Part shown: piece after piece, positions 117-14,372 of the stretch
Numbering within the stretch: position 1 is the stretch's first letter
Layout of the letters: each line of letters opens with the position of its first letter
Source of the DNA: an uncultured Candidatus Saccharibacteria bacterium
Lineage (GTDB): Bacteria > Patescibacteriota > Minisyncoccia > Phycocordibacterales > Phycocordibacteraceae
Direction of reading: 5' to 3'
DNA: 38,439 nucleotides
NCBI GenBank assembly: GCA_964366435.1
Contig: CAYITJ010000006.1
Span: 1 to 38,439 of the forward strand
The notes under the pieces: generated by a model
Told to the model about the DNA's origin: nothing
What the model saw: only the letters and a program-made list of their open reading frames with translations
The model's database searches: none
Position numbers and translations under genes: made by a program

Positions 117-2273
117 ATGCAGCGCGCGCTTGCCCTCATGCTTATGGTGCTTATCAGTGGCGTACCTGCTTTTGCTGTTGCGCAGGAAGTACCCGAGCAG
201 GTGCTCGTTGTAGAAACTCCTACTGAAGCAGTAACAACCCCTACAGAAGTACTTACCCCATCAGAAGAGCCAGCGCCGCCAGCTGCAGAAGAAGTGGAGG
301 AGCTTCCTGGCACCTATGTGGAGGGTGAAGTGATTGTTAAGTACAAAGAATCAAAGATTGACCTAGAAGACCACGGCGACCAGCAAGCTGCGGACACTGT
401 CGTGGAATCGCTTTCTATGGAAACGGTGGACGTCATTGAGGGCATGAATATGGCGGTCATAGAAACAGCAGAGGACACAACGGTAGCAGAGGCAATCGCA
501 GAGCTTGAGTCTAATCCTGCCGTTGAATACGCAGAACCAAACTACGTTCGCTCTATTGAGACACTCGCTTCAACCAGTGTAGAGCTTGCAAACTCGTGGG
601 CGCTTCAGAACACGGGGCAAACGGCGCAAGGAGTGACGGGTACGTTGGGAGCTGACATCGACGCCCTGTCCGCGTGGGACATTGCTTCTGGCACTGCAGT
701 TACCGTCGCGGTGATTGATACGGGCGTTGACTACACACACCCGGAACTTGCAGATAGCATGTGGGATGGTAGCACCTGCGTGAGTGAGACAGGCACCACC
801 TCGTGGAGCTGTGTCCACGGCTACGATTTTGAATACGACACCAGCGACCCGCAAGCTACCACCACCGACAGCACCAGCGCACACGGTACACATGTCGCAG
901 GAGTTATTGCCGCTGCACACGACGACGTGGGTGTGGTTGGCGTTGCATACGGAGCAAAGATTATGGCGCTCCGTTTTGGTCTTGATACCGCGTCTGAGAT
1001 TCGTGCCATAGATTTTGCTATTCAAAACAACATAAAGATTATTAATGCGAGCTTCGGGGGCGATACCTTTTCACAAGCTGAGTACGACGCAGTAGAACGA
1101 TTCCAAAATGCAGGAGGACTGTTCGTGGCCTCCGCAGGCAACAGCGGAGAAGACCTTGATGCCGTTGCCGAGCCTGCCTACCCCGCAAGCTACGATTTGC
1201 CAGGGATTGTGAGCGTTGCTGCAACTGATGCCTTTGACACGCTTGCGTCCTATTCCAACTTTGGCGCAACCCGGGTCGACTTAGCGGCTCCTGGTTCAAA
1301 TATCAGGAGCACCATTCCGCTTGGCGGTTATAGTTACAAGTCGGGTACTTCTATGGCAGCACCGCTTGTTTCGGGAGTCGCAGCACTTTTGTGGTCACAC
1401 GACCCGACCCTTACCGCAGCGGAAGTGAAGGCGGCACTTATGGACAGTGGGGACGAGCTCGCGACACTCTCTGGAAAGACAGTCTCTGGAAAGCGCCTGA
1501 ACGCGTACACCGCACTCGCATCAGTGGCTACTGTACCTCCTGTGGCGGATACCGAGGCACCCGTTATCACCCTTCTTGGCGACAACCCAATGAATCTAAC
1601 CATCGGAAATACATTCACAGACCCGGGCGCCGAAGTTACCGATAATGTAGACGCGACTACCACCGTCATGGGAGTGGGCACTGTGGACAGCGCTACCGCT
1701 GGTTCCTACACGCTCACCTACAGCGCAACTGACACCGCAGGGAATGTTGCGACAACGTCCACACGCAGTGTTGTGGTCTCTGCTCCTGTTGTAAGTGGTG
1801 GTGGAGGCGGAGGAGGGTCTTCTTCGTCCACGTCTCGTCGTGGTGGCGGGGGAGGCGGTTCAACCATCACTCGAGCAACTACGCCTGTGTCTGTCGCACG
1901 ACCACTCACTTCCACTGTTGCTACCCCTCGAGTGCTTGGCGCGACTACTTTTACATTCACACAAGACCTCACCGTGGGCAGTACAGGGAACGATGTGACG
2001 GAGCTGCAGCGCACCCTCACCACACTTGGCTTCTACTCAGGGCCAGTCACTGGATACTTTGGTCCACTCACTGCAAGCGCTGTCTCGGCATTTCAAAACG
2101 CGCGAGGGCTTACGTCCGCGGGACGAGTAGGCCCACAAACTCGAGCGTTACTGAATCAAGGGCAGACAGGGACACCCGTAGCAACAGTATCTCCTACGCC
2201 ATCTATGGCAGACATGCAGGCCAAACTAGTCTCGCTCTTGGCGCAGCTTGCGGCGCTCCAAGCCATGCAATAG
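117..2273 (+). CDS. Secreted S8 (subtilisin-like) serine protease with Ig-like (DUF5011-type) and peptidoglycan-binding domains
   Basis: Signal peptide; catalytic motifs VAVIDTG, HGTHVAG, SGTSMAAP; DTEAPVITLLG..YSATD Ig-like module; Gly/Ser linker; PG_binding_1-like C-terminus (GSTGNDVTELQ..TGYFGPLT..AVSAFQ..GRVGPQTR). Confidence 0.9.
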   Translation: MQRALALMLMVLISGVPAFAVAQEVPEQVLVVETPTEAVTTPTEVLTPSEEPAPPAAEEVEELPGTYVEGEVIVKYKESKIDLEDHGDQQAADTVVESLSMETVDVIEGMNMAVIETAEDTTVAEAIAELESNPAVEYAEPNYVRSIETLASTSVELANSWALQNTGQTAQGVTGTLGADIDALSAWDIASGTAVTVAVIDTGVDYTHPELADSMWDGSTCVSETGTTSWSCVHGYDFEYDTSDPQATTTDSTSAHGTHVAGVIAAAHDDVGVVGVAYGAKIMALRFGLDTASEIRAIDFAIQNNIKIINASFGGDTFSQAEYDAVERFQNAGGLFVASAGNSGEDLDAVAEPAYPASYDLPGIVSVAATDAFDTLASYSNFGATRVDLAAPGSNIRSTIPLGGYSYKSGTSMAAPLVSGVAALLWSHDPTLTAAEVKAALMDSGDELATLSGKTVSGKRLNAYTALASVATVPPVADTEAPVITLLGDNPMNLTIGNTFTDPGAEVTDNVDATTTVMGVGTVDSATAGSYTLTYSATDTAGNVATTSTRSVVVSAPVVSGGGGGGGSSSSTSRRGGGGGGSTITRATTPVSVARPLTSTVATPRVLGATTFTFTQDLTVGSTGNDVTELQRTLTTLGFYSGPVTGYFGPLTASAVSAFQNARGLTSAGRVGPQTRALLNQGQTGTPVATVSPTPSMADMQAKLVSLLAQLAALQAMQ

Positions 2274-11596: not shown

Positions 11597-12721
11597 ATGC
11601 CTGGTCTGTCATCAAAACTATTTGGAGACCGACTCTTCGCCCTTATTGTAGCCATTCTTGTGGTGGGGGGCACAAGTGTGTTTTTCTCTGCGGCGCTCGG
11701 CCTGCTTGCGCGCGAAGGAGGGTCTATCGGACACATCGCTCTCACCCAGCTCGCGCTTGGCCTTGTTCCAGGTCTTATAGCGCTCGCGCTTTTGCGGTTC
11801 GCACCGCCCGCATGGATTGAGAAGGCGATTCTCCCGCTCTTTGTTCTCGCCATTCTTGCCACACTACTGGTGTTTGTCCCTGGCGTGGGTCACCACGTAA
11901 ACGGCGCAACACGCTGGATTGCTATTGGTCCGTTTACCGTGCAGCCGGCCGAGTTCCTAAAGATTGCGACCATTCTCATGCTCTCGCTGTACTTGGCAAA
12001 GATGCGCACCAAGCTCTCTGACATGCGCTACGGACTACTTGGATTCTGCACTATTGTGGGAGTGCCCGCGCTTCTGCTTCTTGCACAACCAAACACTTCC
12101 ACAACACTCGTCATTGGCTTCACTGCCGCAGCACTCTACTTCGTTGCGGGGGCACCACTGCGCGATTTCGCAATTCTTGCCTGCATTGCACTTATTGGAG
12201 CAGGTGCACTCGTGGCAACGCGCCCGTACCTGATGCACCGTGTCCAGACTTTCATAAACCCAGATCAGAACGCACTTTCTACGGGGTACCAGATTCAACA
12301 GTCTCTTATTGCGGTTGGCTCGGGCGGCATGCTCGGACGAGGCTTTGGGCAAAGTGTGCAGAAATTTAACTACCTACCCGAGCCAGTAGGGGACTCGGTC
12401 TTTGCCGTGTACGCGGAGGAGTTTGGGTTCCTCGGCACGGTTATCCTGGTTCTCCTGTTTACGGGATTTGCTGCCCGCGGCTTTGCGATAGCAGCAGGAG
12501 CAGCCACGAGCTTTGGATCGCTTGCTGCCACTGGCCTCACTCTACTCATTACCATTTCAGCATTTATGAACATTGGCGCCATGCTCGGCATCATGCCACT
12601 TACGGGTCTTCCGCTCCCATTTGTTTCCCATGGAGGAACAGCACTCCTGGCAGCGCTTGCGTCCGTAGGTATCATTTTGAATGTCGCTGCGCACCGCCCG
12701 AAGCGCAAAGCCGCACATTGA
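11597..12721 (+). CDS. ftsW: FtsW/RodA/SpoVE SEDS peptidoglycan glycosyltransferase
   Basis: NGATRW, QPAEFLK, GYQIQQS, YLPE..DSVFA..AEEFG, TGLPLPFVSHGG. Lies between mraY and murG. Confidence 0.9.
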   Translation: MPGLSSKLFGDRLFALIVAILVVGGTSVFFSAALGLLAREGGSIGHIALTQLALGLVPGLIALALLRFAPPAWIEKAILPLFVLAILATLLVFVPGVGHHVNGATRWIAIGPFTVQPAEFLKIATILMLSLYLAKMRTKLSDMRYGLLGFCTIVGVPALLLLAQPNTSTTLVIGFTAAALYFVAGAPLRDFAILACIALIGAGALVATRPYLMHRVQTFINPDQNALSTGYQIQQSLIAVGSGGMLGRGFGQSVQKFNYLPEPVGDSVFAVYAEEFGFLGTVILVLLFTGFAARGFAIAAGAATSFGSLAATGLTLLITISAFMNIGAMLGIMPLTGLPLPFVSHGGTALLAALASVGIILNVAAHRPKRKAAH

Positions 12722-12746
12722 TTCCGCACAGAAGTGGTGCTATCGT
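12718..12746 (+). promoter_or_regulatory. Putative tmRNA promoter
   Basis: TTGATT-17nt-TATCGT with TG extension, overlapping the ftsW stop codon. Confidence 0.55.
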
Positions 12747-12751
12747 CATCT

Positions 12752-13165
12752 TGGCTACGCGGTGTGACGAGTAATAAGCGGACTGGACCCGGGTGCGATT
12801 CCCGGCGCCTCCACCACTACCTCACCCCTTGATCTTTTAGTGAAGGGGGCGATCAGCATCGACAGACGTGTAAAAACGTCACCGAGCTTCGAGCTCAAGC
12901 TGCCTGCCAATTCTAAACGCCAACGATAACTTCGTGGTGACTGCTGAGGAAGACGCGGGCGACCGCGTTCTCCTCGCCGCCTAATAGGGTCCGCTAACCC
13001 GACCCAGGCGAAAAGTCCTTCGTCCCTTCACCAGGATTAAGGCTGGGCCCGGAGGGAGCCTGCAAACAGAATCCCTCCACCTCATTCTAGAATCGACGCA
13101 AGCTTTTCCGCGAGAGGGCGCGTGGGTCGGGGGGCCCCCGGTTGCATCGCAACCGGGGGCTTTTC
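12752..13165 (+). ncRNA. ssrA: Circularly permuted (two-piece) tmRNA
   Basis: Acceptor piece comes first (T-arm CCGGG-TGCGATT-CCCGG 12789-12805, CGCCTCCA-CCA 12806-12816). A 28-nt intervening segment follows. Then the coding piece begins GGGGGCG-ATCAGCATCGAC (12845), giving a G3:U70 pair. Tag ORF 12919-12987 reads ANDNFVVTAEEDAGDRVLLAA**. Confidence 0.95.
13134..13165 (+). terminator. Intrinsic terminator of the tmRNA gene
   Basis: GCCCCCGGTTGC-ATC-GCAACCGGGGGC-TTTT. Confidence 0.85.
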
Positions 13166-13211
13166 TCATTCAATGCCGTTAAATGTGCTATAAATAAAAG
13201 ACGAAACATCT

Positions 13212-14372
13212 ATGAAGGTTGTCTTTACCGGAGCTGCAGGAGGGCACTTCTACCCGCTTATTGCGATAGCTGAAGCCCTAGAGGAAATTGTCCTTGAACG
13301 CCGTCTGGTGTCTCCCCAGATGTTCTATCTTTCCGACCAGCCAAACGACGAGCAGACCCTCTTTGCGAGCAATCTGACATTTGTGCGCATTCCAGCAGGG
13401 CGCATGCGTCGCTACTTCTCCATTAAGAATTTCACTGACGCATTTGTCACACTCCATGGATTCTTTGTTGCACTCTTCACACTCTTTCGTATTTATCCCG
13501 ACGTCGTCATTTCAAAGGGAAGTTATGCTAGCGTTCCTGTCGTACTAGCAGCACACCTACTTCGTATTCCTATTATCATTCACGAATCAGACGCGAAGCC
13601 GGGACGGGCAAACATTTTGGCGTCTACTCGCGCAACACGCATCGCGGTCTCTTACGAAAGCTCTATTCCATTTTTCCCCGTGAAGACGCGGAGCAAGATT
13701 GCTCGTGTTGGTATTCCTATTCGCCGTGCTCTTCGCCAGCTTCCCGAGAAGCAAGCCTCTGTCGCCGCTCTTTCACTCGACTCAAGCGTTCCTACAGTGC
13801 TTGTCATCGGTGGCTCTCAGGGCTCGCAGAAAATTAACGAGACACTCATAGACGCACTACACGACCTGGTGCCGTACGTGAACGTTGTTCACCAAACAGG
13901 AAGAGCGCACATCGATGAGGTAGTAAAGCGCTCACACGTAGTACTGAGTACTAGTCCCTTTACTGCTCGCTATCATCCGCTCTCATACCTCTCAGCAGAG
14001 CAGCTACGCACTGCAGCAGGCGCATGTGACGTGGTGGTATCACGCGCAGGCGCTACTTCTATCGCAGAGATTTCGCTGTGGGGAAAGCCAGCAATCCTTA
14101 TTCCTATTCCAGAATCAATCAGTCACGACCAGCGCACCAATGCGTACGCCTATGCACACACGGGCGCCGCAGTGGTACTTGAAGAAGCCAACATGACTTC
14201 GCACGTACTCCAAAGTGAAATTCTTTCTATTGCTCGCTCTCTAGAGCTTGCACAGAGCATGAGTGCACACGCAGCAGGGTTTTCTAACCCAGAGGCCGCA
14301 CGCATGATTGCAGAAGAAATCGTACGCATTGGCCTCTCGCACGAGCCTCAGACTCCCGCACCTGTTGTATGA
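13212..14372 (+). CDS. murG: UDP-GlcNAc:lipid I N-acetylglucosamine transferase
   Basis: GGHFYP, KGSYASVP, HESD..PGRAN, GGSQGS, SRAGATS, HDQRTNA. Confidence 0.95.
   Translation: MKVVFTGAAGGHFYPLIAIAEALEEIVLERRLVSPQMFYLSDQPNDEQTLFASNLTFVRIPAGRMRRYFSIKNFTDAFVTLHGFFVALFTLFRIYPDVVISKGSYASVPVVLAAHLLRIPIIIHESDAKPGRANILASTRATRIAVSYESSIPFFPVKTRSKIARVGIPIRRALRQLPEKQASVAALSLDSSVPTVLVIGGSQGSQKINETLIDALHDLVPYVNVVHQTGRAHIDEVVKRSHVVLSTSPFTARYHPLSYLSAEQLRTAAGACDVVVSRAGATSIAEISLWGKPAILIPIPESISHDQRTNAYAYAHTGAAVVLEEANMTSHVLQSEILSIARSLELAQSMSAHAAGFSNPEAARMIAEEIVRIGLSHEPQTPAPVV

Follow-up and report, generated by a model that had tools for sequence, protein, structure and literature searches.

Transfer-messenger RNA (tmRNA) and SmpB form a nearly universal system, which as a rule has one copy per genome and is regarded as inherited vertically. 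A locus on contig CAYITJ010000006.1 (assembly GCA_964366435.1) raises the question of how a circularly permuted tmRNA gene, in which the 3' end of the molecule precedes its 5' end, came to lie in a genome of the candidate phyla radiation (CPR). The whole stretch analysed, 38,439 nucleotides, is called the window, and positions refer to its forward (+) strand unless stated otherwise. A preliminary description had placed a permuted two-piece tmRNA at 12752-13165, between ftsW and murG, and had suggested that it represents another permuted lineage. In this study, the gene was compared with tmRNA families, with the genome that holds the window (G000) and with related genomes, two of which from the same genus (G228 and G118) also carry a permuted tmRNA. 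We consider it probable that the gene is a genuine two-piece tmRNA of the Caulobacterales form, laterally acquired by a small Paceibacterota subclade and kept as a second tmRNA. The permuted form serves as a marker of three bacterial clades in the available portions of two papers (PMC11915505, PMC9004378), and no CPR case was found in the literature on tmRNA in Patescibacteria or Parcubacteria, permuted or two-piece forms and transfer, which consisted mostly of titles and abstracts.

Identity of the permuted gene

Two Rfam models recognised the locus over their full length. The alpha_tmRNA model RF01849 scored 115.8 bits (E 4e-31; cut-off 50) at 12714-13081, with model positions 1-355 aligned, and the tmRNA_permuted model RF04321 scored 98 bits (E 5e-18; cut-off 47) at 12760-12984, with model positions 1-213 aligned. 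These full-length covariance-model matches are far above chance. The model of the standard one-piece form, RF00023, gave just 21.1 bits at the same locus. In the available part of the tmRNA database paper, RF04321 combines the alpha, beta and cyano models, and three main clades have permuted genes (PMC11915505). The Infernal and Rfam check proposed in the preliminary description therefore supports its annotation of a circularly permuted, two-piece-type gene at 12752-13165, and the elements it listed were found at their places, with a reservation on the helix said to close the 3' domain.

The order of the parts is permuted, with the CCA (up to 12816) ahead of G1 (12845) and of the tag codons (12919-12981). 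The tRNA-Ala-like part has a 7-bp acceptor stem with G3:U70, a 5-bp T stem with a 7-nt loop, and P2 helices that join the two pieces. As had been described, all seven acceptor pairs are standard, with G3:U70 at 12847:12810. The T-arm has five of five pairs, P2a five of six (the sixth is the purine-purine mismatch of the family) and P2b six of seven. The pairing claimed between CGGTGTGACG (12760-12769) and CGTCACCG (12877-12884) was also found, with eight pairs and a 2-nt bulge, and Rfam draws the same helix. Intermolecular cofolding of the two pieces yielded the acceptor stem and the T-arm.

ARAGORN reported nothing in the window or in G228, and true Caulobacter and Brevundimonas genes escaped it too; of six loci tested it detected three, whereas Rfam found all. 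It does detect the G118 copy, which a database may therefore already contain. Because ARAGORN misses true genes, its silence on the window carries no weight, and for practical annotation it should be kept in mind that it overlooked the window copy together with two true Caulobacterales genes.

Affinity to Caulobacterales

A 32-nt motif of the T-arm and acceptor, with one free position (31 specified letters), was scanned over one genome per prokaryote species. The exact motif occurred in at least 120 genome stretches, of which 80 were listed. Among these 80 matches, 68 were named Caulobacter, Brevundimonas, Phenylobacterium, Asticcacaulis, Glycocaulis, Caulobacteraceae or Caulobacterales; the other 12 were nine with unspecific or other names, two one-piece tmRNAs sharing the 3' end, and one Candidatus Paceibacterota sequence (L152) with a copy of the G118 type. 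Among the matches listed, the permuted genes have spacers of 22-42 nt, tags beginning with ANDNF and the string GGGGCCGATCAGCATCGACAGACG; the window departs from this string at acceptor position 5 alone.

The likeness to Caulobacter extends beyond this motif. BLAST against a Caulobacter gene (L095) aligned 106 nt at 84% identity (E 2e-26) and 41 nt at 95% (E 6e-15), the latter being the terminal pseudoknot element, and in the alignment the likeness reaches into unpaired stretches as well as this last element. Overall identity was 63-64% to Caulobacter and 55-56% to Paracoccus and Shinella. The window gene shares with the Caulobacterales two-piece tmRNA (RF01849) the permuted order, the 31 specified motif letters, GGGGnCGATCAGCATCGACAGACG after the spacer, the purine-purine mismatch in P2a, the ANDNF start and ...AA end of the tag, the terminal pseudoknot element and the position of the -10 box. 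The features of the Caulobacterales subtype, namely the T-arm and acceptor letters, the GATCAGCATCGAC linker, the ANDNF tag start, the short spacer and the GGAGGGAGCCTGCnAACAGAATCCCTCC element, were all found, and GGGGGCGATCAGCATCGACAGACG is the Caulobacter sequence except at position 5. Judged by its sequence, the window gene thus belongs to the Caulobacterales form within the alphaproteobacterial family. The prototype of this form is reportedly the two-piece tmRNA of Caulobacter described by Keiler, Shapiro and Williams in 2000.

The gene nevertheless differs from the Caulobacterales genes in several respects. Its host is a member of Paceibacterota with an additional one-piece tmRNA. The 5' hairpin GTCCGG...CCGGAC is missing, other letters make up its P2b helix, G000 and G228 have G:C as pair 5:68, the tag has 21 residues, and an extra 3' stretch of about 85 nt carries its own terminator. 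The tag starts 74-76 nt after G1 in the CPR copies and 79-84 nt after G1 in the Caulobacterales compared. With RF01849, true alphaproteobacterial genes scored 233-303 bits, the CPR copies 116-143 and copies from phages or viral contigs 50-98; the intermediate scores of the CPR copies indicate a diverged family member rather than fresh contaminant DNA.

In the tmRNA tree, the three CPR copies formed one group (support 0.87) inside Caulobacterales, on long branches beside the phage and viral-contig copies, which are the nearest group to them. BLAST of phage and plasmid records, unselected, gave matches with alphaproteobacterial hosts only, and Caulobacter phages were best (94% over 35-36 nt). 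Five IMG/VR contigs contain the exact 32-nt motif, and one of them (L083) has a similar tag, ANDNQVVVAQELPLAA; some of these contigs may be prophages adjoining a host tmRNA gene. Phage carriage of alpha-type two-piece genes, for example by OM43 phage Melnitz, is described in the available part of PMC9004378. Such genes, in Melnitz and others as well as in Caulobacter and Rhodobacter phages, resemble the window gene in lying outside alphaproteobacterial chromosomes. The window gene, unlike them, lies among chromosomal housekeeping genes with no adjoining phage genes, and its spacer is 28 nt, compared with 79-84 nt in the viral contigs.

Two side observations concern the Caulobacterales-type letters. 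In sequencing runs X1 and X7, the T-arm and acceptor letters 12771-12816 recur in short unitigs and in a 22-kb contig with a depth of 150-250, which indicates that these waters also harbour abundant organisms whose tmRNA has an identical 3' end. In L095 (Caulobacter sp.), GGGAGCCTGCCAACAGAATCCCTCCAC occurs twice, about 90 nt apart, after the end of the tmRNA model; this was seen in two Caulobacter records.

Host genome and resident tmRNA

The G000 assembly has 745,045 bases in 32 contigs, a marker-gene completeness of 100%, and a G+C content of 50-54.5% across all 32 contigs. The proposal of a CPR-like genome is in agreement with this 745-kb, complete assembly. The gap that holds the tmRNA is 490 bp long (12722-13211), with ftsW on its 5' side and murG on its 3' side; Pfam assigned both flanks, so the location given earlier was correct. 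An alphaproteobacterial host was not indicated: the 745-kb genome as a whole, like the flanking genes, clusters with a CPR genus. The permuted RNA is therefore, by sequence and structure, a member of the alpha family in a foreign host (Paceibacterota, CPR). No integrase or mobile gene adjoins it among the window open reading frames (ORFs) and in a Pfam scan of the neighbours.

G000 has its own tmRNA as well. A one-piece tmRNA gene in standard order, with G3:U70, is located at C5:47807-48226 (L001 1501-1920, minus strand; RF00023 94.7 bits), about 400 bp from the sole smpB. The preliminary description had advised looking for smpB elsewhere in the genome, and a single SmpB (PF01668, 141.6 bits) is indeed encoded at C5:48620-49045. 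The native tag is AKNSLASVKDTVSPYFGVKDFAFAYA in G000, AKNSLASVKSPYFGKSDFAFATA in G228 and AKNTLASVKSPYFGTKDFAFAYA in G118. It is conserved in the three carriers, has 23-26 residues and ends with FAFAYA or FAFATA. Long tags ending with YAFA are read by Lon in Mycoplasma. The native tmRNA ends with CCG, CTA or CCT in the three genomes instead of an encoded CCA.

The two tmRNAs of G000 are not close to each other. The best BLAST piece between them was 31 nt at 74% (E 0.07), 23 of 32 T-arm and acceptor letters match, and the tags differ. The resident tmRNA (RF00023) presumably has the same partners, SmpB, alanyl-tRNA synthetase (AlaRS) and the ribosome, and G3:U70 is present in both. It differs in its standard gene order, its place next to smpB and its FAFAYA or FAFATA tag, and its likeness to the permuted gene is confined to the universal tRNA-like letters. 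Family identity, foreign origin, chromosomal location and coexistence with a native system are thus established for the permuted gene. A published case of several tmRNA genes in one genome is comparable in having more than one such gene; in its available text there is no pair of native one-piece and foreign two-piece tmRNAs. G000 also differs from the published multi-tmRNA genomes in that it is only 745 kb and its two genes differ in form and origin.

These results change the earlier interpretation. The idea of another permuted lineage was not upheld, because the gene is of the Caulobacterales form, is unlike the host's own tmRNA and occurs in three of the 222 genus genomes, and the own one-piece gene is intact. 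It had also been said that an intact one-piece ssrA elsewhere, with the permuted copy silent, would overturn the interpretation. The intact gene does exist, beside smpB; silence of the permuted copy is argued against by its strong sequence constraint.

Distribution and history

BLAST over the 222 genomes of the genus found the permuted gene in G228 (87% over its length; RF01849 123.6 bits) and in G118 (77% over a 100-nt core; 142.8 bits), which with G000 makes three carriers. Over the whole copy, identity to G000 is 87% for G228 and 57% for G118. In all three, the gene lies in the same ftsW-murG gap and the one-piece gene is kept. RF04321 gave no match above its cut-off in 40 relatives (24 of the genus, 16 of the order). 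RF01849 gave none in 150 phylum genomes and none in 150 class genomes, and one in 150 order genomes, which was G433. Weak matches to RF04321 or RF01849 in relatives and in the phylum sample were rejected as 3' ends of one-piece tmRNAs; all eight phylum loci examined scored 75-115 bits with RF00023. Short BLAST matches in the genus were also set aside, as no tmRNA-family match was obtained in the eight loci examined and seven of them contained tRNA genes. Descent from the native one-piece tmRNA, with replacement of it and lineage-wide spread, was not observed.

The ftsW-murG gap varies among relatives. In the 27 relatives with both genes in the locus, it is shorter than about 80 bp in 22 and about 155-1,390 bp in five, as estimated from tblastn ends. 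In G006, G016 and G027 it contains 430-850 bp of other DNA. The gap of G020 (L014 2655-4008) has two unrelated ORFs of 164 and 293 amino acids, the longer of which looks like a membrane protein, and four other gaps of relatives (L029, L031, L040 and L030), about 155-850 bp long, have no Rfam match. A search for tmRNA remnants in G020, G006, G016, G027, G002 and two close relatives with Rfam at E<=0.1 gave no match in these seven loci, and BLAST of the ftsW-murG spacer in relatives gave chance-level pieces only.

A tree of FtsW and MurG was built for 32 genomes, with supports from FastTree and a plain IQ-TREE tree as a check. G000 and G228 were sisters (1.0), G118 and G021 were sisters (1.0), and all four were joined with a support of 0.29. 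G021 has a gap of about 50 bp without the gene, so a single gain requires at least one clean loss or recombination spread between relatives. One gain followed by loss is the simplest history.

G433, which belongs to another family of the same order and to a genus with one genome in the collection, has an alpha-type permuted copy of another kind (127.2 bits; L209 about 1501-1947, minus strand; G433:C19). The T-loop conforms to the general alpha consensus, and the spacer is about 165 nt. The tag was read as ANTKANENGAPRGFAMAA, and ARAGORN gives ANENGAPRGFAMAA. The copy lies between rpsJ and the exonuclease gene xth, with clpP beyond; compared with G000, S10, EF-Tu and ClpP are 74-80% identical and the exonuclease 45%. 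Its best phage matches were Rhodobacterales phages. A one-piece tmRNA is also present in G433 (109.6 bits). Because this copy is of another type, alpha-type two-piece genes have entered the order at least twice.

Sequence constraint

The tmRNA parts of G000 and G228 were compared against four-fold sites of ftsW and murG. At these sites 187 of 347 positions differ (54%), and in the RNA core 8 of 248. No substitution was found in the acceptor piece (0/65) or in the pre-tag stretch (0/27). The 5' acceptor strand with P2 has 3/46, the tag frame 4/69 and the last pseudoknot element 1/41, and the 28-position intervening segment has two substitutions and one gap. More changes were found in the upstream 30 nt (11/30), the post-tag region (12/50 with four gaps, about 54 positions), the 3' extension (16/50) and the terminator hairpin (13/35). 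Strong purifying selection thus acts on the tRNA-like part, the tag frame and the last pseudoknot, and the low core divergence, set against 54% at four-fold sites, excludes a decaying relic.

Paired changes were also found. Acceptor pair 5:68 is changed on both sides, being G:C in G000 and G228 and C:G in G118, as in Caulobacterales, and one P2a pair is U:A in G000 and G228 and C:G in G118. In a 23-row alignment, in which the T-arm and most acceptor columns are invariant through the choice of rows, the structure pairs 85.6% of cells, compared with 39.5-45.7% when the partners are slid, and nine pairs change on both sides.

Tag reading frame

The tag frame (12919-12987) was read as had been stated: 21 codons from GCC to GCC, ANDNFVVTAEEDAGDRVLLAA (12919-12981), followed by TAA TAG (12982-12987). 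It has an alanine resume codon, hydrophobic residues with an Ala-Ala end, and a stop. The corresponding tags are ANDNFVVTAGEDAGDRVLLAA in G228, ANDNMVVQAQLAA in G118, for which ARAGORN gives the same reading, and ANDNFAEEFAVAA and similar sequences in Caulobacterales. The ...LAA end and the stop are kept in all three CPR copies. The tag had been called unusually long; its 21 residues correspond to the usual 13-residue Caulobacterales-type tag with an in-frame expansion of 24 nt. By alignment the expansion lies at about 12936-12959, and it folds as a hairpin at 12946-12975. It is present in G000 and G228; G118 is without it and stays at 13 residues.

Other parts of the gene

A promoter-like extended -10 box, TGCTATCGT (12738-12746), lies about 6-8 nt before the proposed RNA start. 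The pattern TGnTATnnT is kept in the three CPR copies (TGCTATCGT, TGATATAGT and TGGTATATT), and in alignments the box falls on the 5'-terminal UAUAUU block of RF01849 and on TATATT in Caulobacter. A simple promoter scan did not include it among its calls. The box may act as a promoter.

By the Rfam alignments, the acceptor piece extends over 12752-12816, with an approximate 5' end. It contains the P2 5' strands (12760-12769 and 12779-12785) and then GAC, the T-arm (12789-12805), the acceptor 3' strand CGCCTCC (12806-12812), the discriminator A (12813) and the encoded CCA (12814-12816). The intervening segment of 28 nt (12817-12844) lies between CCA and G1 and would be removed; it is 23-29 nt long in the CPR copies and 22-42 nt in the Caulobacterales genes. 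The coding piece begins with the acceptor 5' strand GGGGGCG (12845-12851), the GATCAGCATCGAC linker and the pre-tag stretch (12845-12918 as a whole). Rfam alignment, folds and pair counts place the P2 3' strands at 12863-12868 and 12877-12884 and a hairpin at 12884-12896.

Downstream of the tag, a variable region (12988-13040) aligns poorly with G118 and Caulobacterales. It is followed by the terminal pseudoknot-type element (13041-13081), at the end of which the alpha model stops. In this element, GGAGGGA (13051-13057) and TCCCTCC (13072-13078) form a stem supported by an inverted repeat and by the folded hairpin. A second pairing of GGGC (13045-13048) or AGGC (13040-13043) with GCCT (13058-13061) could complete a pseudoknot, and G118 has GGGT/ACCT in place of the GGGC/GCCT of G000. 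The string CCTCCACC occurs twice in the window, at 12808-12815 (acceptor 3' end) and at 13074-13081, where the last pseudoknot element and the alpha model end; Caulobacterales genes show it at the second place as well. As a guess, this second copy might act in 3'-end formation of the coding piece.

A variable 3' extension past the alpha model (13082-13132) includes an arm at 13119-13131, and an intrinsic-terminator-like hairpin follows at 13134-13167, with a 12-bp perfect stem and a 3-nt loop (13134-13160) and then TTTTCTC. A simple terminator scan did not call the hairpin at 13134-13160. A hairpin also forms at this site in G228 and G118, from different letters.

The helix claimed to close the 3' domain, CCCGACCCA with TGGGTCGGG, exists in the window as a 13-nt inverted repeat with 92% complementarity (12998-13010 and 13119-13131). 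Neither of the related copies conserves it. Contigs of runs X1 and X2 agree with the window apart from five clustered substitutions (13109 C>A, 13117 G>C, 13124 G>C, 13126 G>T and 13130 G>C), the last three of which break the helix; run X6 has the first two of these differences and run X7 the first one. The changes in X1 and X2 convert TGGGTCGGG to TCGTTCGC, the string of G228 and G118, and a local hairpin GAATCGACGC/GCGTCGTTC takes the place of the long-range helix. G228 and G118 also share GTCGTTCGCAGG in the 3' extension and fold locally as a hairpin. The closing helix was therefore rejected as a feature of the RNA family and regarded as a trait of a single sequence version. The version in the window at 13109-13130 stems either from a minority strain or from local mixing during assembly.

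Proposed origin and function

The following model may be proposed. The gene would have entered a small subclade of one Paceibacterota genus by lateral transfer, possibly via a phage, and landed in the ftsW-murG spacer, a gap variable in length and content, where it would have been retained beside the one-piece tmRNA and the single smpB. A transcript would start at about 12752 from its own extended -10 box and end at the hairpin 13134-13160 and the T run. Enzymes of tRNA processing would trim the 3' end to CCA at 12816, RNase P would cut before G12845, and the 28-nt spacer would be lost. An acceptor piece of about 65 nt and the coding piece would then be held together by the acceptor stem and two P2 helices. 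AlaRS would charge the RNA through G3:U70. With the resident SmpB, it would enter stalled ribosomes and add A-NDNFVVTAEEDAGDRVLLAA, a tag unlike the native one ending with FAFAYA. We infer transcription, processing, charging and use in trans-translation from the tmRNA family; a second tag may bring some benefit.

It is very improbable that the gene arose by an independent new permutation within CPR, that is, by rearrangement of the own tmRNA into a two-piece form. The CPR chromosome, the conserved synteny and some features of its own (the 21-residue tag, G5:C68, the missing 5' hairpin and the 3' extension) would fit such an event. However, the one-piece tmRNA is intact beside smpB in all three carriers and is unlike the permuted gene (E 0.07; 23/32 letters; different tags), the Caulobacterales match includes unpaired stretches, and carriers number 3 of 222 in the genus, 1 of 150 in the order (a different type) and 0 of 150 each in class and phylum. 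Could the locus instead be an artefact, with Caulobacterales DNA misjoined or misbinned with a CPR genome? Contigs of run X1 break inside 12771-12816, where short unitigs of other, more abundant organisms share letters, and these shared unitigs have depths of up to 250 against 46-48 for the CPR flanks in X1 (2-4 in X7). The available part of the tmRNA database paper also warns that cross-phylum tmRNA instances can come from misbinning (PMC11915505). Yet a single 38-kb contig has CPR genes on both sides of the 490-bp gap, and diverged copies (87% and 57%) occupy the same site in the genomes of three species. The joints are bridged by a 547-nt contig of run X2 (12593-13139, ftsW into tmRNA) and a 26.9-kb contig of run X1 (12778-14000, tmRNA into murG), and these runs come from different studies. 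In addition, its identity to the Caulobacterales genes compared is no more than 63-64%, which rules out fresh contaminant DNA. An artefact is thus hardly credible.

Some observations weigh against a single transfer of a functional Caulobacterales gene. The donor inference depends largely on a motif that was itself picked from the CPR sequence, long branches underlie the grouping with phage copies, and P2b is weak in G118, with four of seven pairs by column mapping. ClpX, Lon and SspB are the usual readers of ...LAA tags, and none of them was found in the G000 genome, which does encode ClpP, FtsH and a ClpB-like ATPase. This last point would suit a transferred gene without a rescue role, be it a relic, a decoy for SmpB or AlaRS, a landing site of mobile elements or a regulatory RNA, and so would the apparent redundancy of a second rescue RNA beside a complete native system and the absence of the gene from G021, the nearest relative of G118. 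In the available part of one paper, tmRNA genes are common integration sites, and phage molecules consisting only of the tRNA-like domain are discussed as inhibitors (PMC4131195). We regard this as rather unlikely, because a relic is ruled out by the divergence of 8/248 in the core against 54% at four-fold sites, because constraint extends beyond the tRNA-like part to the tag frame (4/69, with an in-frame expansion and ...LAA plus stop) and the pseudoknot (1/41), and because no integrase or mobile gene adjoins. That the gene came only once is less certain. At least two separate acquisitions, or spread by recombination through the ftsW and murG flanks, would explain why the G000 copy is nearer to Caulobacter (63-64%) than to the G118 copy (57%), why G021 lacks the gene although it is the sister of G118 (1.0), and why the carrier clade has a support of only 0.29; the gap is a variable spot (ORFs in G020, other DNA in G006, G016 and G027), and an unrelated second type occurs in G433. 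On the other hand, the three copies group in the tmRNA tree (0.87), share one insertion site, and have in common several traits that set them apart from the compared Caulobacterales: the tag offset of 74-76 nt, VV at tag residues 6-7, the lack of the 5' hairpin, and the 3' extension with terminator, with GTCGTTCGCAGG in G228 and G118. More than one gain is therefore possible, though we doubt it, and one gain with vertical descent is preferred.

Implications

If this lateral acquisition is accepted, tmRNA genes are able to cross phylum borders and to persist, and a pared-down genome of 745 kb keeps a foreign permuted tmRNA, strongly constrained, beside its own. Cross-phylum retention in this case implies that not all 'cross-phylum' tmRNA matches in metagenome-assembled genomes are binning errors. 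In a broader and tentative proposal, some ultra-small Paceibacterota may use a native and a captured tmRNA with different degradation tags, and such captures may be repeated in CPR, with at least two unrelated ones in this order. If so, repeated capture would point to a real benefit, either a second fate for rescued proteins or a backup when the native tmRNA is under attack. Alternatively, it may be linked to a life on or close to alphaproteobacterial neighbours, Caulobacterales among them, and the borrowed gene would then be a marker of this association. The carriers offer a natural experiment on whether two very different tmRNAs, with different tags, can share one SmpB and one ribosome. The Caulobacterales signature also gives a clue, open to testing, to the partners of these uncultured CPR bacteria in DNA exchange, be they organisms or their phages.

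Neighbouring genes

The gap lies in a run of cell-wall genes comprising D-Ala-D-Ala carboxypeptidase, a family-4 glycosyltransferase (MraY type), FtsW, MurG, GltX and an M23 peptidase. The ftsW ORF on the 5' flank (11597-12721, + strand) ends with the stop codon TGA at 12719-12721 and matches FTSW_RODA_SPOVE (PF01098, 298.8 bits); its product is 97% identical to that of G228 and 55-70% identical to those of genus relatives. The murG ORF on the 3' flank (13212-14372, + strand) matches Glyco_transf_28 (PF03033) and Glyco_tran_28_C (PF04101), and MurG is 94% identical to that of G228, 59% to that of G118 and 53-63% to those of genus relatives. Right before murG, at 13185-13211, there is an extended -10-like box, TGCTATAAA, which is kept in the three carriers and in the tmRNA-less G021. 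This box is probably the own promoter of murG.

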